52,950 nt of DNA, from positions 9,184 through 62,133 of the forward strand of contig JAKLGH010000007.1 of NCBI GenBank assembly GCA_022710775.1, in the 5' to 3' direction. The notes under the pieces were generated by a model. The model saw only the letters and a program-made list of their open reading frames with translations. It was not told where the DNA came from and ran no database searches. Below, piece after piece: positions 1,288-52,165 of this stretch (position 1 is the stretch's first letter; every line of letters starts with the position of its first letter). Both the position numbers and the translations under genes were made by a program. The stretch is from Patescibacteria group bacterium (lineage in GTDB: Bacteria > Patescibacteriota > Minisyncoccia > Minisyncoccales > UBA5738).

Positions 1288-1380
1288 ACTACAACCTGCG
1301 GGCGGATAAATAAACTACGCCGGGGCAGAGCCCCGGAGTATTCTGCCAGTTAAATAAGGGGGTGCTTCGTAACGAAAAAC

Positions 1381-11509: not shown

Positions 11510-11534
11510 AAAATCTGTTAATTTGCAGGCCCCG

Positions 11535-11611
11535 GGCCAGCCCCGGGAACAAAATTCCGATTTTAATCGAAAACTCCGCGCTTTACGCGGAGTTTTTGTT
11601 TTGGCCAGCCC
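11535..11611. repeat. Small repeat element: 9-bp direct repeat GGCCAGCCC (11535-11543 and 11603-11611) flanking a 59-nt insert. The insert begins with CGGGAACAAAAT and contains the dksA-like terminator hairpin (ACTCCGCG-cttta-CGCGGAGT plus T-run).
   Basis: Read directly. The core motif is shared with the repeats at 34934, 36896, 48495 and 51421. Confidence 0.4.
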
Positions 11612-18565: not shown

Positions 18566-19492
18566 ATGGCCAAACCAATCAACAAAAAATTATTTTCCTT
18601 GCTGGCGGTTGCCGGATGTTTCGCGTTTTTCGCGCTGGCCTACGCCCTGGAAACTTCCTGGCCGGAATCTCCGATGAAAACCAAGGTTGACGACACAACC
18701 AACCTGGCTGTTTTCATCAAATACATTTACGAGTGGGGGATAGCGCTGGGCGGCGTGGCAACCTTTATCGCTTTTGTGATCGCCGGGTTCCAATACATCA
18801 CTTCTATCGGCGATCCGCAAACCATGAAGGACGCCGTCGACCGCATCAAATCGGCGATGTTTGGCCTGGTGTTGCTGTTATCGGCTTACGTTCTGTTGAA
18901 TACCATCAATCCCGAATTGGTAAGCTTCCGCCTCGACCCTTTTAATCCCCAGCTTAACGGAGAATTTTTTGAGTCTTGCCAGGCAAACAGCGGCACTTGC
19001 AGACCAGGATACGAATGTAAATTACTTGGCGAAAAAGGCATCTGCTGGCCAAAAGATTATGCCGGCCCGGTCTGTAAAGATGCCGAAATCTATTCGCAAA
19101 CCAATTTCAAAGGGACTAAAACCGTCCTTAGCGTCAACGAAACCCTTGAAGGCGGAGACAACATGCCCAAATCGGTCAGAGCCCGATACATAGACGATGA
19201 TTGCAAAGAATACCTGAAAAAAAATAAAGACAAAGTGGACGGCAGAACCAGCTGTTATTGCGATGAACGGGTTGCTCCCAGCGGCGGGGAGGAAGAAGAT
19301 TCGACTACGATGGTCGGAGAGAAAAACGGCTGCGGCTGCGTGCTCCGGCTTTATAACGAAGATGACGGCTGGCTTTGGTCCGATTGCGGGGATGTGATCA
19401 CGGACGTGCCGGCCTACGAAGCCGATCTGACCCAATGGTTCGACCGGGACGTATATTGCGTGGAGCTTCTGTCGCCCGGAGCCGATAAGTAA
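18566..19492 (+). CDS. Pilin-like protein: signal peptide plus a 2-TM pilin-like domain, followed by a C-terminal Cys-rich extracellular domain
   Basis: AGFQYITSIGDPQTMKDAVDRIKSAMFGLVLLLSAYVLLNTI is paralogous to the other two pilin-like modules. The C-terminus contains about 14 Cys. Confidence 0.6.
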   Translation: MAKPINKKLFSLLAVAGCFAFFALAYALETSWPESPMKTKVDDTTNLAVFIKYIYEWGIALGGVATFIAFVIAGFQYITSIGDPQTMKDAVDRIKSAMFGLVLLLSAYVLLNTINPELVSFRLDPFNPQLNGEFFESCQANSGTCRPGYECKLLGEKGICWPKDYAGPVCKDAEIYSQTNFKGTKTVLSVNETLEGGDNMPKSVRARYIDDDCKEYLKKNKDKVDGRTSCYCDERVAPSGGEEEDSTTMVGEKNGCGCVLRLYNEDDGWLWSDCGDVITDVPAYEADLTQWFDRDVYCVELLSPGADK

Positions 19493-19519
19493 ACCTGCGG
19501 CCGGAGCTAAACCAAAACT

Positions 19520-22294: not shown

Positions 22295-22320
22295 TTTCGT
22301 TTTCCATCAATATTTTAAAA

Positions 22321-22345
22321 GGCTTCGTTAAACGCGAAGCCTTTT
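22321..22345 (+). terminator. Terminator hairpin for ORF 19520-22294 (GGCTTCG-ttaaacg-CGAAGCC followed by TTTT)
   Basis: Read directly. Confidence 0.6.
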
Positions 22346-22377
22346 AGAAAAATAAAATAGGGATCTTGATATCCCTA
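22345..22377 (-). terminator. Terminator hairpin for the minus-strand SPFH gene (TAGGGAT-cttgat-ATCCCTA, T-rich on the minus strand). It overlaps the stop codon.
   Basis: Read directly. Confidence 0.5.
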
Positions 22378-23589
22378 TTCTTCCTCTTTATTTGATTTTC
22401 CTTTTTGTTGTGGCTGCCCTCCTTGCCTGGCCTGCATACCCCGCGACAATAAATGAAGCGGGGTAGTAAGACCCAACGGATCCTTGCCTTCGAGGCCAGA
22501 AACCTCTATTTGTTCCTGGTGCACATCTTTCTTGATAAGCTTGCGGAATAACAACCAGGTTTCCGTAGCTTTCTCCGGGTTCAGGCCGATTCTATCCCGC
22601 AACTCAATGATTGAATCGCGGAAATGCTCCCGCTCGGTCTTCTCGGACCTCTGCTCCAGTTCTTCTTTTGCCAGATCATCCCTGGCTTTCTGGATATAAT
22701 CCGGCAAGCCGATATCCGGTACCGTAATTTGCAGAATCTCGATACCGACAAGCCGAAGAACAAGGTGCCTGGAACCGTTATTAAAAGAACTGATCATTTC
22801 CGATTTCAAGGCTTCGTCTTCGACGTTGACAATCGTGCTGATGATCGCTTCGCGAAAACCCTTTTTATCTTTTAAGGCCTTTTCCATCTTTTTTGTAATG
22901 GCGTATTCACGAATCCCTTGATTAGTTGGATCGCTAATAATGTCTTCCACGCCTGCCGCTTGCCCGACATCCAGATAGCGAATGACGGAAAACGGATTCT
23001 TGTAATCAGGGTGCCAGGTCATGGAAGCTAAAACCCCGATTGTCCCATTCTTAACAGCAACTCTCACTTGGGACAAATCAGTGTTTTTATCCATCACATC
23101 GATCCGGATCACATCCCAAATAAAGGGGATCACCAGGCAGTATCCCTCTTGAACAAGATAAGGAATCCTGCCTCCCATCCAGGTACGAATGCCGATCTGT
23201 TTCGGCGTTGCCTGCACTTCCTTAATAAATAAAATTGCAAGCAAGCCGCTGGCCGCGAAACAACATAGAGCTTGGGTAAAATTTACCCAAACCCCGCCGG
23301 CCAGATAATAAAGGCCCAAAGCTAAGGGTAAGACCAGCAACAATCCGGCGAGCACATTCATGCGATGCTCAAGACTAGCCGCAGCAGCCATCTCTGTTTG
23401 CTGTTCTTCTGTATATTCAGAGCGCCCACTTGCTGTGGGTGCCGGCGTTTCTACCGCTGGTTCCGGTTCAGGCCTTGGTAGCCCATGTTCCGAACCTTCT
23501 GCCGGATTTTGATCTGTTCCGGCATTGCGCCCCGGCGTATCATCTTCGGAAGGTAGTACCGGGCCGTGCATTGGCCCAAAATTATCCAT
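22375..23589 (-). CDS. SPFH/band-7 (stomatin/prohibitin-like) membrane protein with a disordered N-terminal extension
   Basis: Two N-terminal hydrophobic helices are followed by a region with the flavour of an SPFH core (IRTWMGGRIPYLVQEGYCLVIPFIWDVIRIDVMDKNTDLSQVRVAVKNGTIGVLASMTWHP) and a coiled-coil C-terminus. Confidence 0.55.
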   Translation of the reverse strand: MDNFGPMHGPVLPSEDDTPGRNAGTDQNPAEGSEHGLPRPEPEPAVETPAPTASGRSEYTEEQQTEMAAAASLEHRMNVLAGLLLVLPLALGLYYLAGGVWVNFTQALCCFAASGLLAILFIKEVQATPKQIGIRTWMGGRIPYLVQEGYCLVIPFIWDVIRIDVMDKNTDLSQVRVAVKNGTIGVLASMTWHPDYKNPFSVIRYLDVGQAAGVEDIISDPTNQGIREYAITKKMEKALKDKKGFREAIISTIVNVEDEALKSEMISSFNNGSRHLVLRLVGIEILQITVPDIGLPDYIQKARDDLAKEELEQRSEKTEREHFRDSIIELRDRIGLNPEKATETWLLFRKLIKKDVHQEQIEVSGLEGKDPLGLTTPLHLLSRGMQARQGGQPQQKGKSNKEEE

Positions 23590-23669
23590 AGCTATTCACC
23601 TCTTCTTTTTGGTATTCATCAAGCTATACTTCAATCCATATGTGAAATATGACAAGGATCTGTTTTTAA

Positions 23670-23698
23670 ATTATAGCATACTTTACTATTTTTGTCAA
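23670..23698 (-). promoter_or_regulatory. Sigma70-like promoter for the SPFH gene: TTGACA, 17 nt, TATAAT on the minus strand
   Basis: The reverse complement of 23670-23698 reads TTGACAaaaatagtaaagtatgcTATAAT. A GAGGTG RBS lies ahead of the ATG at 23589. Confidence 0.6.
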
Positions 23699-23760
23699 TG
23701 AAAATTACAGCCGCCAGGCGGCTGCTTTTTGCCAATATATGCCAGCGCAAATCAATAACG

Positions 23761-23788
23761 TTGCCCCCGATTTTCCCCATGTTATAAT
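23761..23788 (+). promoter_or_regulatory. Sigma70-like promoter with extended -10 (TTGCCC, 16 nt, TGtTATAAT) for ORF 23867-24262
   Basis: Read directly. Confidence 0.5.
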
Positions 23789-23866
23789 ATATGAATGGTC
23801 AATGATCGCTCAGGCGGGTTTTTGGATTAATCCAAGCCTCGAATAAGCATCAATGATGCATAAAAT

Positions 23867-24262
23867 ATGCCTGAAAAAATCTCCAAACAAAAGTTTTGGG
23901 AGCTGTACCGTAAGCTTCCGACCGAACTTCAAGACGCGCTTTTCGACGACGATTTATGGAACAACGTTGCCGAAATTTGCAGCCGCTACCAAGCGAATGA
24001 TAGCCATGACCTGATATCGGACGGATTGTTCAATGTTTTGCTGGGCATCCTCCCTCCCAATATTTTCATCGACGGGCTGGCAAACGAGCTAAAAACCGAT
24101 AAAGCCACAACGAGCCGGATCATCCATGAGATCAACCGATTTGTCTTATTCCCCGTAAAAGAAGCCCTGGAGGATATTTATAATCTTCAAATGACCCCGC
24201 TTGCCGGAGCTCCTTCGCCCAACGCCACAAAAAGAAGCGCCTACCAGGAGCCGATAGGGTAG
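23867..24262 (+). CDS. Hypothetical soluble protein of 131 aa, first gene of the PrgI/VirB4 sub-cluster
   Basis: ORF track. No motifs recognised. Confidence 0.5.
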   Translation: MPEKISKQKFWELYRKLPTELQDALFDDDLWNNVAEICSRYQANDSHDLISDGLFNVLLGILPPNIFIDGLANELKTDKATTSRIIHEINRFVLFPVKEALEDIYNLQMTPLAGAPSPNATKRSAYQEPIG

Positions 24263-24372
24263 CTTTGGATGTCTGAGAACAAGCGGCTTTTATTTTTTCG
24301 TTTTGCGCGTTAATGAATTAGGGCATTTAAAAAGGTTCGACTGCTTTTCAAAGAGTTATATCCCGGTATCTT

Positions 24373-24810
24373 ATGAATTTCATCCTACCCCAATTCATCG
24401 ATATGGAAACCAAGGTGATCGGACCGCTCACTTTGAAGCAATTCATATACCTCGGGATCGGGGGCGGAGCGTCGCTCTTCCTTTACATGATGTCAACCTC
24501 CAATCCGGAGGGGTTTCCTTTAATAGCCTGCCTGGCTATAGTGATACTCATTATGCTGGTTTCGTTCGCCCTCGCCTTCGTTAAGGTGAACGGGATAACT
24601 CTGCCGGTACTGATAAAACATTCCTTCCTTTTTAACCTGGCGCCCAAAATTTATCTTTGGAAAAAATTCCCTAACGCCAAAATCGTCAACCCAAACCAGG
24701 GAGTGATTAAAATAGTAAAAGGACCGGCAAGCAAAAAAGCCGACCGGGTCACTACAAAAAAAAGCGAACTGAAAAAATTAAGGAACTTTATGGAAACGAA
24801 AGGCAATTGA
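24373..24810 (+). CDS. PrgI/VirB3-like small membrane protein of a Gram-positive-type T4SS
   Basis: A 145-aa protein with an N-terminal motif (IPQFIDMETKVIGPLTLKQFIYL) and two TM helices, lying immediately upstream of VirB4. This is the typical PrgI-PrgJ arrangement. Confidence 0.6.
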   Translation: MNFILPQFIDMETKVIGPLTLKQFIYLGIGGGASLFLYMMSTSNPEGFPLIACLAIVILIMLVSFALAFVKVNGITLPVLIKHSFLFNLAPKIYLWKKFPNAKIVNPNQGVIKIVKGPASKKADRVTTKKSELKKLRNFMETKGN

Positions 24811-24832
24811 AGCCTTAAGCCCAACGCACCAC

Positions 24833-25459
24833 ATGGCATTCACATCAACCCAACAATTCCTAGAGATCGACCAGATAAAAGAAGGCGTTATCGTCTTAAA
24901 AAACAAGGCTCTGCGCGGCCTCCTGATGGTTTCTTCGATCAATTTCGCTTTAAAAGCGGAAGACGAGCAAACCGCCATTATTTACCAATTCCAGAGTTTT
25001 CTCAATTCGCTGGATTTTTCGCTGGAAATTTTTATCCAAAGCCGGCAGCTGAATATCACGAATTACCTGGATAAGTTAAAAGACCTGGAAATAAGGCAAA
25101 CCAACGACCTTTTAAGGATCCAAACCGCCGAATACCGAAAGTTCATCAATGAGCTGATATCGTCGGGTTCGATCATGAATAAAACCTTTTACGTGGTCAT
25201 CCCTTTCACTTTGATGAATCTGCCTAACCTCCCGAAATCAAAAGAAGCGGCCAGGTCCGCCAGCGAGGAACAATTCCAGCGCGCCAAATCCCAGTTATGG
25301 CAGCGGATGGAATTCGTGGCGCTCGGCCTCCGGCGCTGCGGCCTTCAATGCGTTCCGTTGAACAGCCTGGAACTGGTTGAATTCTTTTGGAGCCTGTACC
25401 ATCCGCAGGAATCGGAAAGCGGTTATTATCCTGAAATCCCGCCGGAGCTGATAACTTGA
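24833..25459 (+). CDS. virB4: VirB4/TraC-family ATPase, N-terminal fragment (208 aa)
   Basis: ...IDQIKEGVIVLKNKALRGLLMVSSINFALKAEDEQTAIIYQFQSFLNSLDFSLEIFIQSRQLN resembles the extreme N-terminus of Gram-positive VirB4 (PrgJ/ConE-like) proteins. It terminates at a TGA at 25457-25459. Confidence 0.55.
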   Translation: MAFTSTQQFLEIDQIKEGVIVLKNKALRGLLMVSSINFALKAEDEQTAIIYQFQSFLNSLDFSLEIFIQSRQLNITNYLDKLKDLEIRQTNDLLRIQTAEYRKFINELISSGSIMNKTFYVVIPFTLMNLPNLPKSKEAARSASEEQFQRAKSQLWQRMEFVALGLRRCGLQCVPLNSLELVEFFWSLYHPQESESGYYPEIPPELIT

Positions 25460-25487
25460 TCCGCTCCGTTATCCAACGTTAAATTCT

Positions 25488-27278
25488 ATGGGTCTTTTCT
25501 CTTCCAAAAAAAAGCAAAAAAAACAGGATTTAGGCCAAAGCCTCGAGATCAACACGATCAATATCAAGGATATCATCGCGCCTTCTTCGATCGCTTTGTC
25601 CAGCGAATATCTTAAGCTGGGGGAAAAATTCGGAAAATCCTTCTTTATTTTTTCTTATCCGCGCTATTTGACGACGGGGTGGTTTGCGCCGATCATCAAT
25701 CTGGAAAGCCCGATGGATATTTCTTTCCATATCCATCCGATCGAGACAGGAACAACGTTGAAACAGCTGCGGAAAAAGCTCACTGAAGTGCAAGCCGAGC
25801 TGATGGAAAGGGAAGAAAAGGGGTTGGTGCGCGATCCCGCGCTGGAAATCGCTTACCAGGACCTTGAATCCCTCCGCGACAAGCTCCAAACCTCCCAAGA
25901 GCGCATGTTCAAGCTTGGAATATACCTTACGGTTTATGAAAATTCCTTGGAAAAATTGAAATCCGTTGAAACGACCCTCCGGTCGATACTTGAATCGAAA
26001 TTAATATATATCAAGCCGTCTCTTTACCAGCAAAAGGAGGGATTCACTTCAACCTGCCCTTACGGTTTAGACGAGATCAATGCGCATACTCCGATGAATA
26101 CCGGACCGCTTTCTTCAACTTTCCCCTTCATCTCCTTTGATTTAAGCGCCAACGACGGCATCCTCTACGGCGTGAACCTCCACAATAATTCTTTGATCCT
26201 GTTTGACCGGTTCAGCCTTGAAAACGCCAACAGCGTGATCTTCGCCAAATCCGGCGCCGGTAAGAGTTACGCCATCAAGCTGGAAGTCCTGCGCTCCATG
26301 ATGATGGGAGTTGAATCGATCATCGTCGATCCGGAAAACGAATACCGGGCCCTCGCGGAAGCGGCCGGAGGTTCATTCATCAACATCTCCCTTACGTCGC
26401 CAAACCATATCAATCCGTTCGATTTGCCGATCCCGCGAGACGACGAGGATCCGGAAAACGTGTTGCGCAGCAATATTATCAACCTGGTTGGCCTTGTCCG
26501 GATCATTTTAGGGGGCTTGTCGCCCGAGGAAGACGCGATCATCGACCGGGCCCTCACGGAAGTTTACGCCGCCAAAGACATCACGCCGGAAACCGACCCC
26601 AGCCTCTGGAAAGAAAGAACGCCGTTGATGCAAGATCTGGAAGCCGTGCTTGAAGGCATGGAAGGAACGGAATCGCTTGTAAGGAGAATCAGAAAATTCA
26701 CCAAGGGAACGTACGCGCAATTTTTCAACCAGCCAAGCAATATCTCAATGGATAAGCTGATGGTGGTTTTCGGCATCCGCGACATGGAGAACGAGTTGCG
26801 TACGGCAGCAATGTTTATTATTATGCGCCATATCTGGAACAAAGTAAGGATGACTTTGAAAAAAAGAATCTTGGTGGTCGACGAGGCTTGGTGGCTTATG
26901 CAAACCGAAGATGGAGCGTCTTTCCTGTACGGTCTTTGCAAAAGGGCCAGAAAATACTGGCTTGGCGTTACCACCATCACGCAAGACGTTGGCGATTTCA
27001 TGAAATCAACTTATGGCCAGCCGATTATTACCAACTCATCGATACAGTTTTTAATGAAGCAATCTCCGGCAACGATCGATATCCTCCAAAAAACTTTTAA
27101 CCTTACCGAAGGAGAAAAAAATCTTTTGCTCGAAGCCGAAGTGGGGGAGGGGCTTTTCTTTGCCGGCCAGAAACACGTTGCCATAAAAGGAATCGCTTCC
27201 TACGTGGAAGATCAAATCATCACCACCAGCCCCGAAGAGATCCAAAAGATCAAAAAGGCAAAAAGCGGCAACGAATGA
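25488..27278 (+). CDS. virB4: VirB4/TraC-family ATPase, main fragment (596 aa)
   Basis: Walker A FAKSGAGKSYAI and Walker B ILVVDEAWW, plus the VirB4 N-domain motif KFGKSFFIFSYPRYLTTGWFAPIIN. It is in a different reading frame from the upstream fragment. The two frames overlap over only about 5 nt around 25455. Confidence 0.85.
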   Translation: MGLFSSKKKQKKQDLGQSLEINTINIKDIIAPSSIALSSEYLKLGEKFGKSFFIFSYPRYLTTGWFAPIINLESPMDISFHIHPIETGTTLKQLRKKLTEVQAELMEREEKGLVRDPALEIAYQDLESLRDKLQTSQERMFKLGIYLTVYENSLEKLKSVETTLRSILESKLIYIKPSLYQQKEGFTSTCPYGLDEINAHTPMNTGPLSSTFPFISFDLSANDGILYGVNLHNNSLILFDRFSLENANSVIFAKSGAGKSYAIKLEVLRSMMMGVESIIVDPENEYRALAEAAGGSFINISLTSPNHINPFDLPIPRDDEDPENVLRSNIINLVGLVRIILGGLSPEEDAIIDRALTEVYAAKDITPETDPSLWKERTPLMQDLEAVLEGMEGTESLVRRIRKFTKGTYAQFFNQPSNISMDKLMVVFGIRDMENELRTAAMFIIMRHIWNKVRMTLKKRILVVDEAWWLMQTEDGASFLYGLCKRARKYWLGVTTITQDVGDFMKSTYGQPIITNSSIQFLMKQSPATIDILQKTFNLTEGEKNLLLEAEVGEGLFFAGQKHVAIKGIASYVEDQIITTSPEEIQKIKKAKSGNE

Positions 27279-29115: not shown

Positions 29116-29921
29116 ATTATGGTTGTGTCGCGGCTAATTTTAAGCCGAAATTAATAGATTGCCTGGGAGCGGCGCGTTCTTTTTATTTTTTCGCTCCCAA
29201 TCAAAATTTTTAAAACTTTCTTGTTTTTTTAGGAACAAGAAAAACAAATATTATTTTGCTTTCGGACCACAAAATAATAAGTTTATTGTACATTTTTTTA
29301 GGATTTTGTAAACGCTGGCCCCGGAATTCCCGGAAATTCCGGGCGTTTCCCCGGTTATCCCCTCAAATATGCGCCTTTTCCACTGTTTTTCCACACTATT
29401 TAACGCTCTGGATATATTCTCTGCCGTTCAAATATCGCCTTTTGGATTTTTGCCGGCCGTTTTTCTTGCAATTTTAATTGTTTTTGACTATTTTAAATTT
29501 ATGATACTATGAGTTATAGCAAAATTCCCGACGGCCCGTTGTTCGGGAATTTTAGGGCCAAAAAATAAACTACCCCGGGGCAGAGCCCCGAGGTATTCCT
29601 ACCGCTCCGCTATCGCTTCGCGGATAGGAAAAGTATGTTTTTCCTCCGCTTCGCTCCGGGCTGACATTCATCCCCGCGGCAAAGCCGACGGGGTATTCTG
29701 TCAGATTAATAAAAAAGGCCTTTTGTCTTTTTGTGCTGTTTTTCCCGCTTTCATTAAGCTCGGTGCGCAAGACAGTCGACACGACCATAATCTATCCAAG
29801 CCTCTTTTTCGAATACTGGCTGTTCGAAAAGGTTTAAAACATCTACTGCCTATCTCCGCGAAACGCGAAGAATTTTACCTCGTTTCAAGGTATTAAGCGC
29901 GAAAGGCAACAATTTCCCATC
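29116..29921. promoter_or_regulatory. Putative oriC part 1 (rpmH-dnaA intergenic)
   Basis: Tandem DnaA-box-like sites TTTTCCACT (29365-29373) and TTTTCCACA (29376-29384), plus TTATCCCCT at about 29352. AT-rich tracts at 29170-29300. CCCCGGAAT(T) palindromic motifs at 29306-29345. Position between rpmH and dnaA. Confidence 0.55.
29563..29735 (+). ncRNA. Candidate structured small RNA or element inside the oriC region. It begins with the motif AAATAAACTAC-CCGGGGCAGAGCCCCG-GGTATTC (also present at 1308-1347). It contains a 9-bp bulged hairpin (CCCCGCGGC-aaa-GCCGaCGGGG) and ends in a terminator-like AAAAAAGGCCTTTTGTCTTTTTG.
   Basis: Read directly. Strand and RNA status are inferred only. Confidence 0.35.
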
Positions 29922-34771: not shown

Positions 34772-34933
34772 TTTCTCCTTTTTTGATAATTTAGCTGATA
34801 AGGCTTTTAAGGGGTTGAAGCGGGAATGGGGGATTTATCCCCAATTTATCCACATCATGCCCATATATTATTTATATATTATTTTCCGTTTTGTTCCAAA
34901 AGAAGCTTAGCTTAACAAAGGATGTTTATTTAT

Positions 34934-35098
34934 GGGCCGAGGGCAAACCCTGGGAACAAAAGGAAAAAAGAGGGCCTTGGCATACCGCTTCTAATTCTAC
35001 AGACAAGAAATCATTTCTAACGACGCCAAGGTGTTGATTTCGGGGCTAAGCTCGCCTGCATTGTTTATGCCGCGCCGGGCGGTTTGCCGGGTTCAAAG
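34934..35098 (+). repeat. Intergenic repeat element R1 (165 nt). 5' end GGGCAAACCCTGGGAACAAAA. 3' end GCCGCGCCGGGCGGTTTGCCGGGTTCAAAG.
   Basis: Shares both ends with R2 at 36896-37028. The 5' GGCAAACC and 3' GGTTTGCC can pair. Confidence 0.6.
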
Positions 35099-36878: not shown

Positions 36879-36895
36879 ATTGTTTTTATTGCTTT

Positions 36896-37028
36896 GCGGG
36901 CTACGGGCAAGCCCTGGGAACAAGCTAAGGAAGATGGCTTGTCTGCCCCACAAGCACTCTTCGAGGAAGCAATGTTTGGCTGCCTGCGTGGTTATGTGCC
37001 GCTCCGGGCGGGTTTGCCGGATCCAAAG
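36896..37028 (+). repeat. Intergenic repeat element R2 (133 nt), a paralogue of R1. 5' end GGGCAAGCCCTGGGAACAAG. 3' end GCCGCTCCGGGCGGGTTTGCCGGATCCAAAG.
   Basis: The ends are conserved with R1 and the interior has diverged. The A-to-G change in the 5' arm keeps pairing with the 3' arm as a G-U wobble. Confidence 0.6.
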
Positions 37029-37897: not shown

Positions 37898-38317
37898 GGT
37901 AATGATTTATATTTTTTGAATTATTTTTATTTAACTGGCAGAATGCCTCGGGGCTCTTTCCAGGGGTAGATTATTGGTATATTTTTGCCAATTTGGCTTG
38001 GGGGAAGGCCGCAATGTTTGGTATTTACGATCCAAGAACGAAAAATCGCCATAAACAATGCGAACAACATTATATTAATCAAAAAAACGATTTAGTCAAG
38101 GGTATTTCCGTTAATTATAACAAAATTCGTCAATTTATAACAAAATATGAAGCGAAATAATAATACACCTGTTGCAATTAAGACTGATATATTATAAAAT
38201 ATAAGTCTTCGCAAAAAACAGCGTTTTTCAAAGAAAAAACAGGGTGGTTGGTTATAAACCCGGCCTACCCCTTGACAAAACTTACTAAAAATATTAAAAT
38301 AAGGGATACTTACGAAA

Positions 38318-41624: not shown

Positions 41625-42848
41625 ATGTCGCTAGATATCACAACCTGGCTGGTGATCAATAAAGTGATCATCGTTCTAGTGAATATCGTCGGGTTTTGGC
41701 TGGCCGGTACGAGCCTGTTTGGATCTTTAGGCCAAAAAACGAACAAATATTTCTTCATTTTCGCTACTTGCTTGCTCGTCTGGATCGATCTTCAGTTTGT
41801 TATTACCTTCTCATCTTTTTTATTCCCCCTGCCTTTTAATATTCTTGGCGCATTATGGGCGAAAAGGCTGACTTACGCCGTTTTAGCGCTTTTTTTTATT
41901 TCTTTTTATTATTTTACTTTGTATTTTCCGCGCGAAGGCCAGCGTTCCCGGGCGTTTGATATCGGTTTTGTTTCGGCGTGGGTGGTTCTTTTCCTCCTGT
42001 CTTTTTCCCCCTGGATGGTATCCGAGGTTTTTTCCCCTAATATGATAACGGGAGCGGGGGATGCCGTCTATTATTACGCCATCATTATTTCCATCTTTGT
42101 CTGCTTGTTTAACGTCTTAAGCAAAAACCGTTATCTTACCAGCCAGGAAAAGGAAAAGGTCAATAACTTGATGCGAGGCGTCATTATTTTTGGCGCTTTC
42201 AAATCTTGGCCGCTCACAACGGTAGCTTACGGCAGCATTCTAAGCCAGTATTCCTTGATTTTTTTATTGGGGTTTGTCGCTTATGCGGTAAACCAGAAAG
42301 AGATCTTCGAAATGAAAGTGATCCTGGTCGAATTGCTGCTGGGCACCATCGGGGCGATTCTGCTCATTCTGCCTTTTGTGACGGAAAATATTTGGCTGAA
42401 AGCCGCGCACTACGTTCTTTTCATCTTATTTTGCGTTTTTTTTGACATCATAATGAAAAGCGTAATTAAGGAGTTCCAGGAGAAAGAGATATTGGAAAAA
42501 AAGGTGGAGCAGCGGACAGGCGAATTGGAAGCGGCCAAAAAAAACCTGGAAGAGACCAATGCCGTCCTTGAAGTAAGGGTAAGAGCGCGTACGCTGGAAT
42601 TGCAAAAATTAAACCAAACCTTGGAAGAAAAGGTGGAAGAAAGAACTGTCGACCTTCAGGAGAAAATGAGAGAATTGGAAAGGTTTAACCGGCTTTCCGT
42701 CGGCCGGGAATTAAAAATGATCGAGTTGAAAAAAAAGATCGCGGATATGGAAGATGAGCAAAAGAAAAAACCGAAAAGGCTTTTAGGCGACAAAATGGAG
42801 AATAAGGGGGCGGAACCGTCTTCTGCCAGCCAGTTAAAAGCGGATTAA
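41625..42848 (+). CDS. Multi-TM (about 8 helices) membrane protein with a C-terminal coiled coil carrying two signalling-helix motifs (…ERT.EL / ERTVDL…). It has no kinase domain.
   Basis: Tandem paralogue of ORF 42852-44102. The coiled-coil motif is shared with the N-terminus of the histidine kinase at 44140. Confidence 0.6.
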   Translation: MSLDITTWLVINKVIIVLVNIVGFWLAGTSLFGSLGQKTNKYFFIFATCLLVWIDLQFVITFSSFLFPLPFNILGALWAKRLTYAVLALFFISFYYFTLYFPREGQRSRAFDIGFVSAWVVLFLLSFSPWMVSEVFSPNMITGAGDAVYYYAIIISIFVCLFNVLSKNRYLTSQEKEKVNNLMRGVIIFGAFKSWPLTTVAYGSILSQYSLIFLLGFVAYAVNQKEIFEMKVILVELLLGTIGAILLILPFVTENIWLKAAHYVLFILFCVFFDIIMKSVIKEFQEKEILEKKVEQRTGELEAAKKNLEETNAVLEVRVRARTLELQKLNQTLEEKVEERTVDLQEKMRELERFNRLSVGRELKMIELKKKIADMEDEQKKKPKRLLGDKMENKGAEPSSASQLKAD

Positions 42849-42851
42849 AAA

Positions 42852-44102
42852 ATGTTAGAAAACATAGCTCAGCATTTCGTATTGATAAACAAATTAACGG
42901 TTTTTTTGATAAATGCGATCGGCTTAGAGCTGGCTTTTTGGGTTTATTTTATCAACCGGAAACAAAGGGTCAATAAACTTTTTTTATTTTTCACTCTTTG
43001 CTTGATAGTCTGGGTCGATTTTGATTTTTTAGGCACATTCGCGCCGTTTCTTTTCGCGGAAGCCGATGTTGTGTGGGTGACGCTGATAGCCACCAGGATT
43101 ATTTTTGCTTTTCTGTGCCCGTTTTTTCTTTTTTTATATTTTTTCTCGGTTCATACCTTAAACCCCGACAGAAAGCCTAAAATAATGGAAGTTATTCAGT
43201 CGGTAGCATGGACCGTGCTGCTTGCCCTTTCGTTTACCGACTTGATTGTTGCCGACGTTGCGATCAATCCTATCGATCCGATAGCGACACAGGTAATTCC
43301 CGGCCGCTTTCTAATCTTTTATTTAATTTTTGCGGTTTTCTCTTTCGCGATATCTTTGCTCAATCTGGCCAAAAAATACGCAAAGATGTCTTCAGCCACG
43401 AAAAAGAAATTTTCTTACATCCTTGCGGCTTTAAGTCTATTTGGGATTTTTAACATAATATTCAACGTTGTCATTCCGGCATATTGGAATGTTTATCCGG
43501 GGCAAATATCCCTTATCGGGGATTATTCGATCATTCTGCTTCTCGCTTTCGCCGGCTACTTAATCATAAAAGAGAGGTTGTTTGGCATAAAAATAATTCT
43601 AACAGAGATTCTGATAGGTTTGATGGGCGCCATTCTGGCCATCATGCCATTTTTAATCGATGTGCTGTGGCAGCGCATCCTTCTTGCCCTGCTTTTTTTC
43701 CTTTTTTGCATTTTTAGCTACCTGCTCATCAAAAGCACCATTAGGGAATACCGAGAGAAAGAATTGTTGGAACATCAAGTAAGGAAAAGGACGCAAGAAT
43801 TGGAAAGCGCCAAGAAAAACCTTGAAGAATTAAATACCGTTTTGGAAATCAGAGTGGCGGCTCGGACGGCGGAATTGGAAAAATTAAATCAAACCCTCGA
43901 GGAAAAAGTGAAAGAAAGAACTACCGATCTCAGGCAAAAGATCAGCGACCTGGAAAAATTCCAAAAACTAACTGTTGGACGGGAATTAAAAATGATAGAA
44001 TTAAAAAAGGAAATAGAAACGCAAAAGACGCGAGTCAAACAGCTGGAAGCTAAAAAAGGAAAAAGCGATTTGAAGCTGAAGGCGGCTGTGGCGCACGGTT
44101 GA
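42852..44102 (+). CDS. Paralogous multi-TM membrane protein with a C-terminal signalling-helix coiled coil
   Basis: Same architecture as 41625-42848. The C-terminal …LNQTLEEKV.ERT.DL..K...LE.F..L.VGRELKMIELKK segment is about 70% identical between the two. Confidence 0.6.
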   Translation: MLENIAQHFVLINKLTVFLINAIGLELAFWVYFINRKQRVNKLFLFFTLCLIVWVDFDFLGTFAPFLFAEADVVWVTLIATRIIFAFLCPFFLFLYFFSVHTLNPDRKPKIMEVIQSVAWTVLLALSFTDLIVADVAINPIDPIATQVIPGRFLIFYLIFAVFSFAISLLNLAKKYAKMSSATKKKFSYILAALSLFGIFNIIFNVVIPAYWNVYPGQISLIGDYSIILLLAFAGYLIIKERLFGIKIILTEILIGLMGAILAIMPFLIDVLWQRILLALLFFLFCIFSYLLIKSTIREYREKELLEHQVRKRTQELESAKKNLEELNTVLEIRVAARTAELEKLNQTLEEKVKERTTDLRQKISDLEKFQKLTVGRELKMIELKKEIETQKTRVKQLEAKKGKSDLKLKAAVAHG

Positions 44103-47482: not shown

Positions 47483-48421
47483 ATGATCATTTTCTTATAC
47501 GGCGAAGATACCTACCGCCTGAATAAAAAATTGAACGAAATTATACAGCAATACAAAAACCAAAAAAAAGGGTTGAATTTTGTTTCATTCGATGCCGCAG
47601 TTTCTCCGTACGAAGAATTTTCCCGGGAAATCAGACAAAAGTCCATATTCGGGGAAAAAAAGTTCGCAATTGCCAGAAACGTAATTTCAAACAAGAATTT
47701 CAAAGAGGACCTGCTAAAAGATATTGATAGTTTAGCCGGATCCGGAGACGTGATTGTGGCTTGCCAGGAAGGCCATGTTTTAAAAACCGACCGGTTGCTT
47801 TCCGCATTTAAAAAAAGCGCCAAATGCCAGGAATTCGAACTGCTTAGCCCAATAAAACTGAATGCATGGGCTCAGAAGGAAGCTGAAAGCCTTGGTTTAA
47901 AAATTTCGAAAGCCGCATTGGACAAGCTGGTTCTGTTCATCGGCAATGACTTATGGCGATTATCGAACGAAATCCAAAAGCTGGCTAATTACCGTTACGG
48001 AAAAAATGGAGAAGCTCAAGAAGAAGATGTCGTATTGCTGGTCAAACCCACGGTTGAAACCGATATCTTTAAAACCGTAGATGCTTTGGCCAAGAAAAAC
48101 AAAAAACTGGCTCTTTTGCTGGTTCATGAGCACTTGGAAGCCGGAGATTCCCATTTTTATATCCTTTCGATGATCAATTACCAATTCCGAAACTTGGTCA
48201 TCGTAAAAGCTGAATCAGAAAGGGTAGGCGGCAGCCAGGGATTGGCTAAGGACTTTGGTATTCATCCTTACGTTATTCGTAAATCGTTAGAGTTGAGCCG
48301 CGCCTTTACCTCGGCTGATTTAAAGAGGATATACTTAAAGATTTTTCAAATAGACTTGGACGTAAAAACCGGAAAATTAAATGCCGAAGTTGCGCTGGAC
48401 CTGCTGATTTCTGAAATTTAA
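47483..48421 (+). CDS. holA: DNA polymerase III delta subunit
   Basis: MIIFLYGEDTYRLNKKLNEI N-terminus and a three-domain architecture of about 310 aa. The start was moved to the ATG at 47483. The upstream extension overlaps mutM. Confidence 0.7.
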   Translation: MIIFLYGEDTYRLNKKLNEIIQQYKNQKKGLNFVSFDAAVSPYEEFSREIRQKSIFGEKKFAIARNVISNKNFKEDLLKDIDSLAGSGDVIVACQEGHVLKTDRLLSAFKKSAKCQEFELLSPIKLNAWAQKEAESLGLKISKAALDKLVLFIGNDLWRLSNEIQKLANYRYGKNGEAQEEDVVLLVKPTVETDIFKTVDALAKKNKKLALLLVHEHLEAGDSHFYILSMINYQFRNLVIVKAESERVGGSQGLAKDFGIHPYVIRKSLELSRAFTSADLKRIYLKIFQIDLDVKTGKLNAEVALDLLISEI

Positions 48422-48440
48422 CCAACGTTAAGGCGAACAA

Positions 48441-48467
48441 AAAACCGCAGTTTGATGCGGTTTTTTG
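48441..48467 (+). terminator. Rho-independent terminator of holA (CCGCA-gtttga-TGCGG followed by TTTTTTG)
   Basis: Read directly. Confidence 0.65.
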
Positions 48468-48494
48468 TTCGGTTTCAAGATTTATTATTTTGCA

Positions 48495-48812
48495 AACCCA
48501 AGGGTACCCTGGGAACAAAATATCGACGATTCCAAAGGAGGCTACTCCTTTGACCCCGCAGGCTGCGGGGAATACCACAGGAAAATCGAATTTATATTTT
48601 TCTATCGGTATTTCGCCTCCCGGGGTACGAACCCCCGGCGGTGACCGAAGGAAATCCCGAAGCATTGAGGGGCGACCAGAGGATGTTTCCTCCCCCGCAG
48701 GATGCGGGGCGGAGTACCTAAGTCCTCCTCATTTCTCCCCGCTTTTTGCGGGCAGGAAGCCTAAGGCTTCATTTTGTTCCAAGGGCTTGTCCCGGGGTCT
48801 ACAAATTAATAA
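48495..48812 (+). repeat. Repeat element R3 (about 318 nt). It carries terminal inverted repeats CCCTGGGAACAAAAT / ATTTTGTTCCAAGGG at 48507-48521 and 48771-48785. Its right 220 nt are an inverted copy of R4 (51421-51620).
   Basis: Alignment by eye of R4 against the reverse complement of R3. There is high identity across about 200 nt, with a 37-nt indel. Confidence 0.7.
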
Positions 48813-48817
48813 ATATT

Positions 48818-49102
48818 TTACTTCTTTTTGGCTTTTAATGCTACCGGTTTGGATAGGAATTTTGTGATTCTTGATTTTTTGCGGGAAGCGGTGTTTTTTT
48901 TGATCACGCCGGCTTTAGCCGCTTTATCCAGAGCTTTATAGATCGCAGAAAGGCTTTTTTTCGCTTCGGCAACTTTTTCCTGCCCGACAAGAGCTTTTGC
49001 TTCCTTTAAAAGGCTCTTCGCTTTTTGTTTATAAGCGGTATTGCGGATCTTTCTTTTTTGGCTTTGGCGAAGCGCTTTTTTTGCTGATTTTATTATAGGC
49101 AT
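48818..49102 (-). CDS. rpsT: 30S ribosomal protein S20
   Basis: MPIIKSAKKALRQSQKRKIRNTAYK… a canonical S20. Confidence 0.9.
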   Translation of the reverse strand: MPIIKSAKKALRQSQKRKIRNTAYKQKAKSLLKEAKALVGQEKVAEAKKSLSAIYKALDKAAKAGVIKKNTASRKKSRITKFLSKPVALKAKKK

Positions 49103-49337
49103 TTTTTTCTTTTACAAGACTTACGCAGTCGCCCCATTTTCTGCGTTAAAGTATCCGGGTGCTAGTCGCCCAAGCCGTACGGCTCCGGCGCACCCTCGCG
49201 CTTTGCCTTGAATCTGTGCCAACCGCGTAAGTCTTGATTTTAATATGGTTGAATTCAACAATAGTCATCAGTATAACACTATTCCAAATTTTTGCAATAA
49301 AAAAGAGGCGGAATGCCTCTTTAAACGCCTGGTTTCG

Positions 49338-49883
49338 TCAACAACCGCAATCCTTGCGCGAGCTAACATAGGCCATGAAAGTTAAAATGATAGCGAATAT
49401 CACCAGAAAATAATTTTTGCCGAAATGATAGCCGCTGCCATCTTCTTTCACGCCATAAGAAAAAGGCGAGGGCGGCGGTTCGTAAGTTTCGACATACCTG
49501 TAGGCCTTTTGCGTATTATTTGCAGGCAAAAAGGAGAATTCGCGCAGAATATTGCTTTCTTTGTCGATCAGCCGGGAAAGAACCACGCCGGTTGTCGCGT
49601 TTCTGATAAATTCGGCGGCATTGGCGTTAAATTCCATTTCTGTGCTATCAAAGCGGGTACTGCGCTGGATATTGTTAAAGCCGTCCATCTTATAGATCTG
49701 GATGCCTTTCTGGGCCATGGCGTTTGGTATCGTTTGGTCCCAAGCGATCGGCTGGTCGGGCGCCGGATAAAGGGTCCAAATCCATATAACAGCCAGAAGA
49801 ATTATCGCTACAGCTTTTACGATTTTGGCAATTATCTCGCGTTTTCCAAGCATTTTAGCACCTCTTAAAGTACTAGGCTGCAT
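49338..49883 (-). CDS. Hypothetical membrane protein (N-terminal and C-terminal TM helices)
   Basis: ORF track. No family recognised. The start is uncertain. Confidence 0.45.
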   Translation of the reverse strand: MQPSTLRGAKMLGKREIIAKIVKAVAIILLAVIWIWTLYPAPDQPIAWDQTIPNAMAQKGIQIYKMDGFNNIQRSTRFDSTEMEFNANAAEFIRNATTGVVLSRLIDKESNILREFSFLPANNTQKAYRYVETYEPPPSPFSYGVKEDGSGYHFGKNYFLVIFAIILTFMAYVSSRKDCGC

Positions 49884-49979
49884 TATAAATAAAATTTTTG
49901 ATAAGTCAATTTTAAATTAAGCTATTGAACCCGGCGGTTCTTTAGGTAAAATGGAGGATAACGTTAAATTATTCATATT

Positions 49980-51284
49980 ATGGCGATACGTTTAAAAAAA
50001 ACAGTTAAAAGGTTAATGCCTAAATTTGCCCTCGGCTGGTATCATTACGGCCTGGCTCTGACCGGCGCGCTGATCTATGGGTTTCCGGCGCGCAAATTGT
50101 TAGTGATAGGGATTACGGGAACCAATGGCAAATCAAGCACCGTAGAGCTGGCGTCGAAAATAATGGAAGAATCCGATATTCCGTCAGCGTCATTATCGTC
50201 AATCCAGTTTAGGATCAAAGAGAAGGTAGAGCCAAATATCCTAAAAATGACAATGCCGGGCCGCTGGACCATCCAAGGCTTTTTTAGACGGGCAGCCCAG
50301 GCTGAATGCATTACCGCTCTTTTAGAGGTTACGTCGGAGGGTATCAAACAGTATCGCCACCGGTTCATTGGATTCGACACCGCGGTTTTTACGAATCTTA
50401 CGCCCGAGCATATCGAGGCGCACGGAAATTTCGAAAACTATAAGCTGGCCAAGGGTGAATTGTTCGCCGTTGTAAAAAACCGGCATATTATTAATCTGGA
50501 CGATCCCAATGCCGCTTATTTTCTGAGTTTTCCTTCAAAAGAAACTTATGGGTACGGTATAAAAGGGGAGAAAAGGGAGATCGCGGATGTAAAAAAAGAG
50601 CTTAAAATTTTTGAAGCAGAAAATATTAAAATCGGGATAAAAAATATTGGTTTCCAGGTAAAAGGCGTTGATTTCTCGATAAGGCTGGACGGTGCGTTTA
50701 ATATATACAATGCTTTGGCCGCCATTTGCGTTGGCTTTTCCCAAGGGGTGAGCTTGGAGGGATGCAGTGCCGCTTTAGCCAAATTCGAAGGCCTGGCGGG
50801 CCGGATGGAAGAAGTGCAGGATAAGCCCTTCCGCGTTGTAGTGGATTACGCGTTTACTCCTAACGCCCTTCAGAAGGTTTATGAGACGTTAAAAGGCCAG
50901 GTTGGCGCCAAGGGCGGCAAACTGATTTGTCTTTTGGGGGCGTGCGGAGGCGGCCGCGACAAATGGAAACGGCCGGTTTTAGGCGGCATTGCCGGGAAAT
51001 ATTGTAAAGAAATAATAATTACTAACGAGGATCCTTATGATGAAGATCCCCAAGAGATCATTGACCAGGTAGCCAAAGGAGCCGGAGTGGGCGCTCTGGG
51101 AATAATGGACAGGCGGGAAGCGATAAAAAAGGCATTAAGCTTGGCCGGGCCTGGCGATGTTGTAGTAATGACCGGCAAGGGCTGCGAGCCCTGGATTTGC
51201 TTAAAAAACGGCGAGAAAATTCCTTGGAACGAGAAAAAAATAGCGGTTGAAGAGTTGGAAAAACTGGGTAAAACCGAGGGATAA
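49980..51284 (+). CDS. Mur-ligase family protein (MurE/MurT-like) of 434 aa
   Basis: ATP-binding P-loop GITGTNGKSST, Mur-ligase middle-domain motifs (VFTNLTPEHIEAHGNFENYKLAKGELF) and a C-terminal domain. The exact substrate cannot be assigned. Confidence 0.7.
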   Translation: MAIRLKKTVKRLMPKFALGWYHYGLALTGALIYGFPARKLLVIGITGTNGKSSTVELASKIMEESDIPSASLSSIQFRIKEKVEPNILKMTMPGRWTIQGFFRRAAQAECITALLEVTSEGIKQYRHRFIGFDTAVFTNLTPEHIEAHGNFENYKLAKGELFAVVKNRHIINLDDPNAAYFLSFPSKETYGYGIKGEKREIADVKKELKIFEAENIKIGIKNIGFQVKGVDFSIRLDGAFNIYNALAAICVGFSQGVSLEGCSAALAKFEGLAGRMEEVQDKPFRVVVDYAFTPNALQKVYETLKGQVGAKGGKLICLLGACGGGRDKWKRPVLGGIAGKYCKEIIITNEDPYDEDPQEIIDQVAKGAGVGALGIMDRREAIKKALSLAGPGDVVVMTGKGCEPWICLKNGEKIPWNEKKIAVEELEKLGKTEG

Positions 51285-51420
51285 AACGGTTGAAAAACAG
51301 TGGATATTGTTCTTGGCTTATTCTTGACAATTTAAAGCTAACAAGCTAAACTTTAATCTAATAGAACAGTTGCCGGAGGAGCCCCCTTAATCGGGGATTT
51401 TAAAGTTGTTATATAAGTTT

Positions 51421-51620
51421 ATTAATTTGTAGACCCGGGCGAATTCTGGGAACAAAATGAAGCCTTAGGCTTCCTGCCCGCGAAAAGCGGGCAGAAATGA
51501 GGATTCCAAAGGAAGCATCCTTTGGTCGCCCCTCAATGCTTCGGGATTTCCTTCGGTCACCGCCGGGTGTTCGCACCCCGGGAGGCGAAATTCCTATGAA
51601 AAATATAAATTCGATGAGTA
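51421..51620 (-). repeat. Repeat element R4, an inverted partial copy of R3. It contains the TCTGGGAACAAAAT core at 51444-51458 and overlaps the RBS and start of the downstream 3D-domain gene.
   Basis: See R3. Confidence 0.7.
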
Positions 51621-52165
51621 TTTATCTGAAATATCCCGTTTGGGGAAAAAGTTTACTGATTTTTGTGCTTGGCTTTAGCGGCCTTTGGCTGGTTTTAAGC
51701 GATGGTTTGGTTGAGGCGGAAAGCCTGGCTAAAACCCAGACCCCCGAGGCCGTTTTGGAGGCAGTTGAAGAATTGGACGATTTGCCTATGGCCGAAGACA
51801 ACAGCGTTGTTGCTCTGGCCGATAATACGGCTGCCGCAAGCCGCGAAATAAGCGATGCCGAAGCCAAACAGGCTAAAAGGATACCGGTAGTGGTTACCGC
51901 TTATTCCAGTACGCCTTGGGAGACCGATGATACGCCTTTTATCACCGCGTCCGGAACAGAGGTCAGGGACGGGGTTGTGGCCAATAATTTATTGCCTTTT
52001 GGGACTCGCATCATGATCCCGGATCTTTACGGAGAAAAAATCTTTACCGTTGAAGACCGGATGCATTGGAAAAAAAGCATATACCAAGTGGATATTTGGT
52101 TTCCCTACACCAGCGATGCGATTAATTTCGGAGTTAAAAGCGCTTCTATCGTAGTTGTCGACTAG
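51596..52165 (+). CDS. 3D-domain (MltA/YuiC-like) secreted cell-wall-binding protein
   Basis: Signal peptide, then a C-terminal region with conserved Asp residues (…WETDDTPFITASGTEVRDGVVANN…TVEDRMHWKK…IYQVDIWF). The start was moved to the ATG at 51596, which has a GGGAGG RBS. The ORF-track extension lies inside repeat R4. Confidence 0.7.
   Translation: MKNINSMSIYLKYPVWGKSLLIFVLGFSGLWLVLSDGLVEAESLAKTQTPEAVLEAVEELDDLPMAEDNSVVALADNTAAASREISDAEAKQAKRIPVVVTAYSSTPWETDDTPFITASGTEVRDGVVANNLLPFGTRIMIPDLYGEKIFTVEDRMHWKKSIYQVDIWFPYTSDAINFGVKSASIVVVD

Follow-up and report, generated by a model that had tools for sequence, protein, structure and literature searches.

Inverted repeats around rpsT and a Mur ligase gene in a Patescibacteria genome belong to a dispersed family of modular palindromic repeats

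In a Patescibacteria genome, rpsT, a hypothetical gene, and a Mur ligase gene lie between two inverted repeats, R3 and R4, which are the subject of this report. The stretch of DNA analyzed, referred to below as the window, is 52,950 nt long (JAKLGH010000007.1, positions 9,184 to 62,133), and coordinates are window positions unless a contig is named. The organism is an uncultured member of the Patescibacteria (Paceibacterota) living in anaerobic digesters, and NCBI labels one protein binned with it "Candidatus Paceibacterota bacterium." The bracketed segment (48814 to 51417) contains rpsT, encoding ribosomal protein S20 (48818 to 49102, minus strand, identified with Pfam); an open reading frame (ORF) of 181 aa for which no annotation was obtained (49338 to 49883, minus strand); a Mur ligase gene (49980 to 51284, plus strand) with the Pfam domains Mur_ligase_M and Mur_ligase_C; and the native promoter and leader of a gene for a 3D-domain protein (51614 to 52165, plus strand). 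The identities first read from the sequence held for S20 and the Mur ligase. A Pfam scan of the window's 3D gene product gave no match, and the name stands through the JGI annotation of its 90%-identical homologues.

The repeats contain copies of an element of 150 to 230 nt that we call the R unit. One, R3R, is a complete long-form unit on the minus strand (48585 to 48813; nhmmer E = 1.7e-82) that starts 5 nt past the rpsT stop codon. The other, R4, is a medium-form unit on the plus strand (51418 to 51613) that abuts the ATG of the 3D gene at 51614. A repeat search resolved the pair into arms of 94 nt (48598-48691/51510-51603, 91% identity), 58 nt (48726-48783/51446-51503, 95%), 22 nt (48792-48813/51418-51439, 95%), and 18 nt (48585-48602/51598-51615, 100%). 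Aligned globally, the reverse complement of R3R and R4 are 89.9% identical over 199 shared columns, with longest exact runs of 45 and 33 nt and a single internal indel of ~31 to 37 nt (48692 to 48725). The initial annotation had described inverted repeats of about 200 bp around these genes, ~85 to 90% identical and differing by a 37-nt indel, and the alignments confirm this observation. The repeats are identical across independent JGI, ENA, NCBI metagenome-assembled genome (MAG), and Logan assemblies and are therefore not an assembly artefact.

The R unit is built of recognizable parts. It opens with a head that resembles repetitive extragenic palindromic (REP) sequences, running from TTTATTAATTTGTAG through a GC palindrome to AACAAAAT, and this head is also found alone. 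Its components are an AT-rich TTTATTAATTTG, a GTAG or GCAG tag, an imperfect GC palindrome whose best form is ACCCCGGG-CTTG/CAAG-CCCGGGGA, and AACAAAAT. Among 12 aligned heads, the stem is a perfect 7 bp in L009a and L007a and imperfect in the others, and the tag reads GTAG in 5, GCAG in 4, and otherwise in 3. (Handles such as L009a denote copies on other contigs.) The head is followed by hairpins P2 (GAAGCC-UUA-GGCUUC) and P3 (CUGCCCGC-GAAAA-GCGGGCAG), an optional module M, P4, a conserved core (GGUCGCCCCUCAAUGCUUCGGGAUUUCCUUCGGUCACCG), and P6. A GGGAGG-bearing tail closes the unit (GGGAGGCGAAAT..AAATATAAATTCGAT(T); as RNA, GGGAGGCGAAAU.CC.AU.GAAAAAUAUAAAUUCGAU(U)). R3R has the full order of head, P2, P3, nested module M, P4, core, P6, and tail, and the two hairpins that had been quoted for R3 and R4 are both present. 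Module M, a nested palindrome on the minus strand in R3R, is the indel that distinguishes R3R from R4; it has the form GGTACTCC-N-CCCCGC-loop-GCGGGG, with N = G in R3R. Four copies (R3R, L022c, L019e, and L021a) carry the module and three (R4, L021b, and L016b) lack it. The module also occurs in elements of a second type, type B, described below, and, rearranged, in the left part of R3. Copies thus fall into a short class lacking P2 and P3 (L016b and L010), a medium class (R4 and L021b), and a long class with M (R3R, L022c, L019e, and L021a).

Two other identities were considered for the head and rejected. As a promoter, it shows a hexamer spacing of 20 to 22 nt and no consistent -10, and an extracytoplasmic function sigma factor-like GGAAC lacks a matching -10. 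As an intrinsic terminator, its hairpin is followed by a U-tract on neither strand, and genuine terminators adjoin R1 (a solo head introduced below) and R3. It was also observed that the palindrome loop is CTTG in L007 and L009 (L007 312 to 362; L009 329 to 378) and CAAG, its reverse complement, in 6 of the 12 heads. The orientation of the flanks is unchanged despite this loop flip, which is typical of template switching at a hairpin or cruciform.

R3 as a whole (48481 to 48813) occupies the convergent holA/rpsT intergenic region and is a composite of two units set tail to tail, matched by nhmmer on both strands. To the left of R3R lies a truncated unit on the plus strand, R3L (48481 to 48584; E = 6e-5), which consists of a head (48481 to 48521) and ~63 nt resembling P4 and module M. 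R3 had been read as a single MITE (miniature inverted-repeat transposable element) with 15-bp terminal inverted repeats of its own. The inverted ends do exist (48507-48521/48771-48785, 14 of 15 positions matching), although the start at 48495 was placed slightly loosely, and the inverted similarity reaches ~41 nt (48481-48521 versus 48813-48771). Because R3 is R3L and R3R tail to tail, however, these ends are the heads of two convergent units, and the single-MITE reading falls. Single units (R4, L019e, and L022c) do not carry the terminal inverted repeats of a classical MITE but only an imperfect ~8-nt terminal complementarity, AATTTGTA/TATAAATT.

Copies of the R unit are not confined to this locus. 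With up to one mismatch allowed, the window has five occurrences of the core CYGGGAACAAAAT, where 0.55 would be expected, and none of 100 shuffles gave five; the core of R3 and R4 is shared with the short-core copies, which makes this one repeat family, as first supposed. JGI metagenome contigs were scanned with a 20-mer of the core, and seven loci matched, three of which (L017, L018, and L020) were set aside as chance 21- to 27-nt matches in high-GC coding DNA. The remaining four loci contributed six further copies in unrelated contexts. These included L022c, between a murC-like gene and a histidine kinase gene (L022 being the same locus as L016) and 97.8% identical to R3R; L016b, a short form upstream of ligT; L019e, between uvrA and rmuC; L021a, following a deoC-like gene, 98.5% identical to L019e with a different flank; and L021b, ahead of gyrB. 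Family copies are 78 to 99% identical and come from the same digester populations. The near-identity of R3R to L022c and of L019e to L021a, with differing flanks, points to recent spread. An nhmmer profile of the copies also found a diverged short-form unit in the hypothetical gene/rpsT gap of the relative L010 (E = 2.4e-7).

In total there are at least eight R loci, plus solo heads. The copy between uvrA and rmuC was located both on a contig in MAG GCA_035914655.1 and on a 404-kb contig from JGI sample 3300010429. This MAG and this sample also contain the rpsT and dnaA contigs of the window, so that one genome holds at least three copies. Neither R3R nor R4 has the other as its closest relative: R3R is nearer to L022c, and R4 is without the nested module. 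The genes downstream of R units are unrelated, encoding the 3D protein, a ClpB-like protein, a histidine kinase, RmuC, GyrB, and LigT.

Solo heads were found at 11517 to 11555 (R1, plus strand), 8 nt past the stop codon of a DksA/TraR-type gene and ahead of its terminator, and at 34920 to 34962 (R2, plus strand), in the divergent intergenic region between a penicillin-binding protein gene and tyrS. A sixth, weaker head-like copy lies on the plus strand at 36885 to 36930, between yebC and ruvC on the minus strand. Solo heads also occur in L007 and L009. Altogether, six heads were counted in the 53-kb window and one in 20 kb of contig L077. As a separate observation, a perfect DnaA box, TTATCCACA (34843 to 34851), with a near-copy, TTATCCCCA, stands beside R2 (34825 to 34855).

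Searches of wider collections returned little. At the gathering threshold, Rfam matched nothing in the window apart from two tRNAs, and a search of 48400 to 51700 relaxed to E ≤ 10 gave only subthreshold chance matches, mostly on the holA terminator; a known noncoding RNA family, which had been named as an explanation that would undo the repeat interpretation, does not account for the similarity. Neither the head nor the core pattern matched any GTDB species representative, and this lineage is evidently not represented there. In IMG/VR, the core pattern had no match, and a relaxed head pattern had 43 single matches, which were uninspected and taken as chance. BLAST against phages and plasmids gave no match, and in the literature searched we found no description of REP- or MITE-like repeats in the candidate phyla radiation (CPR)/Patescibacteria. 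Readings as a riboswitch, for c-di-AMP or otherwise, or as a common regulatory leader were rejected, as the downstream genes are unrelated and orthologues are without the element.

Comparison with relatives shows gain and loss of these elements at individual sites. The 3D protein is 90% identical in L007 and L009 and 78% identical in L010. In all three, the gene order (holA and, in convergent orientation, rpsT and the hypothetical gene, then the Mur ligase and 3D genes) is kept in the same orientation, and the intergenic regions are shorter (68 to 211 nt versus 396 nt, and 121 to 128 nt versus 329 nt, in the window). The R4 site is empty in each of them, reading ...GTTGTTATACGAG(T/C)ATT/ATGAGTATT (a slash marks the junction), with ...GAGTATT/ATGAGT as the clean site; in the window it reads ...GTTGTTATATAAGTTTATT, then the element AATTTGTAG...AAATTCG, then ATGAGTATT. 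R3 is absent from L009 and L010, and L007 has a related type-B element in its place. Conversely, the R-like unit found only in L010, between the terminator of the hypothetical gene and the rpsT promoter, fills a site (TTTATT, the element ending in AAATTGATT, then GCAAAA) that is empty in the window, L007, and L009 (TTTATT/GCAAAA). A solo head follows a 5'-3' exonuclease gene in L007 and L009, and the window is without it. Presence/absence polymorphism was seen at five sites among these relatives. The sequence (T)TTATT precedes every full-length R unit and most solo heads, and the filled and empty comparisons (R4, the L010 unit, and the L009 head), which are few and cross-species, fit insertion 3' of TTATT. 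At the uvrA/rmuC site, an 80%-identity relative has an extra gene and no family members, and this offers no clean empty site.

All R copies are intergenic, beginning 5 to 116 nt past the upstream stop codon and ending 0 to 115 nt before the next start codon. At 8 of 8 R loci the unit is co-oriented with the adjacent gene or genes, as are 5 of 6 solo heads, the copy at 36885 to 36930 being the only one set against its neighbors. The cumulative GC skew has its minimum at ~30 to 32 kb, near dnaA-dnaN, which places the replication origin probably inside the window. Orientation does not switch across this minimum and so follows transcription rather than replication. On the antisense strand, the unit presents a terminator-like site, GAAGCCTAAGGCTTC followed by ATTTTGTT, in which the P2 hairpin precedes AUUUUGUU. 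For this reason, we infer that antisense insertions between cotranscribed genes would be selected against.

The transcripts that would carry R3 and R4 can be predicted from neighboring signals. A sigma-70-like promoter for the 3D gene (TTGACA-17-TAAACT, 51324 to 51352, plus strand), conserved in relatives, lies upstream of R4, and R4 is therefore predicted to be transcribed as part of the 5' untranslated region (UTR) of that gene. The R4 tail places GGGAGG at 51579 to 51584, 11 nt before an in-frame ATG at 51596; the ancestral start, at 51614, lies six codons farther downstream. The JGI gene caller took this alternative, R4-borne ATG in contig L005, giving a 189-aa product. The initial proposal that R4 supplies the region upstream of the 3D gene is supported; this region includes a GGAGG and a new in-frame ATG. 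The tail ATG is not conserved among copies. R3 lies between the rpsT stop codon and a bidirectional intrinsic terminator shared by holA and rpsT+R3 (48434 to 48471; a 16-bp perfect stem between A and T runs), so R3 is most likely part of the rpsT 3' UTR. In the native 3D leader, GGAGGAGCCCCCTTAATCGGGGATTTTAAAG (51374 to 51404) forms a small hairpin with a U-run that is kept in L007, L009, and L010 upstream of the R4 insertion point, and it may be an attenuator or regulatory hairpin.

The hairpins themselves appear to be conserved. The sense strands of the two copies fold more stably than shuffled sequences (z = -4.0 and -3.3), and their opposite strands score almost as strongly (z = -3.5 and -3.3). 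We scored a ten-helix model on a seven-row alignment and compared it with controls in which the partners were slid by 1 to 3 columns. In a model that was derived from the same sequences on which it was scored, 89% of cells were paired versus 40 to 56% in the slid controls, and 5 pairs were changed on both sides (two in P2 and one each in P3, P4, and P6) versus 0 to 1 in the controls. The data show that the hairpins have been maintained, whether at the level of RNA or of single-stranded DNA.

Taken together, we think it probable that R3R and R4 are independent insertions of a lineage-specific, multicopy, modular R unit, and that their inverted layout is incidental and does not constitute a switch. 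The dispersed copies and their presence/absence between close relatives support the view that the family behaves as small nonautonomous mobile DNA. R units would land in AT-rich gene boundaries, immediately 3' of TTATT, and would be gained and lost between close relatives, with copies at different loci up to 98 to 99% identical. They seem to persist almost solely in the orientation that would be transcribed "sense" with their neighbors. The likely cause of this bias is that the antisense strand would present a terminator-like hairpin and U-tract whereas the sense strand ends in a Shine-Dalgarno (SD)-like GGGAGG, suggesting selection on orientation at the level of transcription. By this route, the R4 insertion would have become part of the 3D gene's 5' UTR and of the region where its translation starts, and the R3R insertion part of the rpsT 3' UTR.

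Several observations weigh against this reading. One divergent lineage, L019e/L021a, accounts for essentially all of the compensatory changes, and self-templating of the palindromes, rather than selection, could also yield them. Pairings of the G-U and A-C kinds are nearly equal in number (14 versus 13) and give no clear favor to the sense strand; the ratio is uninformative on strand, so selection at the RNA level is not demonstrated. The exact GTAG tag is found in only 5 of 12 heads, and the copy number, about 1 per 10 kb sampled, derives from fragments rather than from a complete genome. The ATT at the right junction may be either a 3-bp target-site duplication or the element's own end. Finally, a Pfam search of about 60 proteins from ~100 kb sampled revealed no REP-associated tyrosine transposase (RAYT)/TnpA, Y1/HUH, or related transposase. 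The one transposase gene seen, at 17497 to 18432 of L077 (same MAG as the window), where the 404-kb JGI contig ends, is of the IS481/IS3 type (HTH_28/HTH_32 and rve domains), and it was rejected as a parent since the ends of its element are unrelated to the R and head repeats. With regard to the classical MITE, then, dispersed copies with presence/absence variation are found, and no parent autonomous insertion sequence (IS) with matching ends turned up in the ~100 kb.

The R unit joins the REP/bacterial interspersed mosaic element (BIME)/BOX/MITE-like class of small palindromic intergenic repeats as a lineage-restricted newcomer, and there is no sign of a new kind of mechanism. For the comparison with GTAG REPs, REPINs, and BIMEs, we drew on Di Nocera et al. 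2013 (PMC3733652) and Nunvar et al. 2010 (PMC2817692). GTAG-tagged REPs are imperfect GC palindromes of 20 to 40 bp with an unpaired GT[AG]G tag, located extragenically near ORF 3' ends; they are recognized by more than 100 copies per genome and by a RAYT (Y1 transposase) gene flanked by REPs (PMC3733652). The R head shows most of these descriptive features. As in the GTAG REPs of Proteobacteria, it is an imperfect GC-rich palindrome of 20 to 40 nt, with an unpaired 5' tag that reads GTAG in 5 and GCAG in 4 of the 12 heads; heads are extragenic, 5 to 20 nt past stop codons and mostly between unidirectional or convergent genes; and several palindrome types coexist in one genome. As in REPINs and BIMEs, heads occur singly and as inverted pairs (R3 and type B) within palindrome mosaics. 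The differences are that the host belongs to the CPR, which is not among the reported phyla; that the tag is degenerate; that the conserved AT-rich TTTATTAATTTG and AACAAAAT flanks belong to the unit; that many copies add a conserved, hairpin-rich body of 110 to 190 nt with an SD-like tail; and that no RAYT gene was found among the ~60 proteins scanned.

Other families share different aspects of the R unit. BOX elements of Streptococcus pneumoniae (boxA-boxB(n)-boxC) and the Correia elements of Neisseria (CREE/NEMIS) are short (100 to 250 nt), modular, hairpin-rich, and intergenic; they are cotranscribed with their neighbors and can bring promoter- or ribosome-binding-site-like signals that alter the expression of adjacent genes. 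In Correia elements, the terminal inverted repeats measure 26 bp and a TA is duplicated. The R unit is likewise short, modular, hairpin-rich, and intergenic, with variable module content, but it has no sequence similarity to either family, and in contrast to Correia elements a single unit has only the ~8-nt imperfect terminal complementarity and no demonstrable duplication. Like the IS200/IS605-derived PATEs, it has subterminal GC hairpins near both ends (the head palindrome and P6) and appears to insert 3' of a fixed TTATT with no clear duplication, on the evidence of two to three filled/empty pairs. Unlike in PATEs, no TnpA or TnpB was found in the ~100 kb sampled, and it cannot be demonstrated that the hairpins at the two ends represent one recognition motif. 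A lagging-strand bias is expected for the IS200/IS605 family (PMC6006769), whereas the orientation of R units tracks transcription and not the direction of replication.

As to what might move the R units, our best guess, and a tentative one, is that an HUH/Y1 transposase of the RAYT or IS200/IS605 type works in trans on single-stranded hairpins. A more elaborate proposal is distinctly improbable. It holds that a REP-headed composite is spread through a streamlined CPR genome by a RAYT-like HUH/Y1 transposase, that insertions, through the structured and SD-bearing tail of the sense strand, rewire the 5' UTRs and translation starts of housekeeping genes (those for the 3D hydrolase, GyrB, RmuC, and ClpB-like proteins), and that copies act as breakpoints of strain rearrangement (rpsT>R>clpB in contig L002, described below, and rarely an inversion of 48.8 to 51.4 kb).

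Among the alternatives to independent insertion of a mobile repeat, the one that fares best, though we consider it unlikely, is that R units are functional RNA modules kept for a role in mRNA, mobility being only their means of arrival. Such a module could be a stabilizer or processing site in 3' UTRs, or a portable 5' UTR in which GGGAGG, masked by CGCCCC, tunes translation. The strong folds relative to shuffles, the compensatory changes in the hairpins, and the strict sense orientation with neighboring genes all fit this idea, as does the apparent position of R4 downstream of the 3D promoter, where it now seems to provide the SD/ATG context of the gene. REPs elsewhere are likewise thought to act as RNA elements near ORF 3' ends (PMC3733652). 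On the other hand, the opposite strands fold nearly equally well, there is no wobble asymmetry, and the downstream genes have no common theme. The distance to the next start ranges from 0 to ~115 nt with no conserved ATG in the tail, and orthologues in sister genomes manage without the element.

It is also important to consider that R3R and R4 might define an invertible segment, as the initial annotation suggested. Homologous recombination between them would flip 48814 to 51417, separating the 3D gene from its promoter (51324 to 51352) and placing it behind rpsT, and this could constitute an expression switch. Inversion is physically possible, as the copies are inverted and 90% identical and exact runs of 45 and 33 nt suffice for RecA-type recombination in view of minimal homology lengths, and the native 3D promoter inside the segment would give it a regulatory consequence. 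An inverted isomer, however, was not found. Contigs with identical genes were available from JGI, ENA, NCBI, and Logan (eight for rpsT, six for the Mur ligase, and four for the 3D gene), and every one crossing R3 or R4 has the reference arrangement, although consensus assemblies could miss a minor isomer. The suggested synteny comparison gave no support either, since the repeat-free relatives share order and orientation, which makes the present state ancestral. A Pfam scan of neighboring genes turned up neither a recombinase nor an invertase within or next to the segment, and R3R and R4 are ordinary members of a dispersed family, each nearer to copies elsewhere than would be expected of a coevolving pair. 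The layout does recall invertase-controlled segments (fim, hin, and shufflons), in which inverted repeats bracket a promoter-containing segment; it differs in having no recombinase gene, in its ~200-bp repeats of a dispersed family, and in the single orientation seen in contigs. We regard an invertible switch as very improbable.

Contig ends and one junction bear on the same question. Several contigs end within copies (L004 starts at 48584, L005 starts at 48614, L006 spans 48784 to 51475, and L079 ends in the rmuC copy), which is the usual behavior of assemblers at repeats and no evidence of flipping. Contig L002 (ERZ27257455; L068, k141_82694) favors the inversion idea insofar as it indicates that R units can be breakpoints of rearrangements or chimeras. 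It is identical to the window rightwards from 48584, and leftwards, with one single-nucleotide polymorphism in the R tail, it carries a clpB-like AAA+ gene (1224 aa) and then NADH-dehydrogenase/Fe-hydrogenase genes. In relatives, the clpB-like gene is preceded not by rpsT but by a 129-aa gene, and L075 has a type-B-like element there. The rpsT>R>clpB junction reflects either chimeric assembly at a further R copy or a rearrangement mediated by the repeat, and it is not the predicted inversion product. Finally, a local segmental duplication, in which R3R would derive from the leader and opening codons of the 3D gene and have decayed since, or vice versa, with local rearrangement, has a negligible chance of being correct: the similarity does extend through GGAGG and six codons read from the upstream ATG, but units with the same tail lie upstream of unrelated genes elsewhere, the 3D leader of relatives has no such sequence, and synteny is unchanged.

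Besides the R units, the window holds other elements and genes. A type-B palindromic element occupies the rnpA-dnaA intergenic region (29556 to 29720, plus strand) and shares module M. Type-B elements begin right after stop codons with ACT(A/G)CCCCGG...CCCCGAGGTA and end in an inverted head-like TTTATTAAT, a REPIN-like doublet. Partial copies lie at 1301 to 1343 (plus) and 37941 to 37975 (minus), and others were found at L007 7320 to 7470, L021 1583 to 1762, and L075 5625 to 5760. In the 5' UTR of rpsT, a ~120-nt insert on the minus strand (49115 to 49236) forms a long hairpin with arms CAAGACTTACGC.../...GCGTAAGTCTTG, between the promoter (TTGCAA-16-TATACT) and the start codon. The window and L009 have this insert, and L007 and L010 lack it at the corresponding site; it could be a further structured element of the presence/absence kind or a leader for S20. 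Two adjacent tandem paralogues (41625 to 42848 and 42852 to 44102; 407 and 416 aa) show ~73% DNA identity over ~215 nt and have no Pfam match. A type IV secretion system (T4SS)/conjugation-like cluster spans 18566 to 27278 (T4SS pilin, PrgI, TraG/VirB4-like ATPase, and large unannotated proteins), and a further pilin-like gene lies at 3646 to 4140.

CPR/Patescibacteria genomes are tiny, and in this one young, still-changing hairpin repeats sit in what are probably the UTRs of core genes, namely rpsT and the genes for the cell-wall 3D protein, GyrB, and RmuC. Their local consequences would be a rebuilt start region for the 3D gene and long structured UTRs for rpsT. Gene starts can be miscalled or altered where a unit has landed, as R4 adds an SD sequence and six codons to the 3D gene. 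R repeats also break metagenome assemblies of this lineage (L004, L005, L006, and L079) and possibly misjoin them (L002), and they are usable as strain markers.

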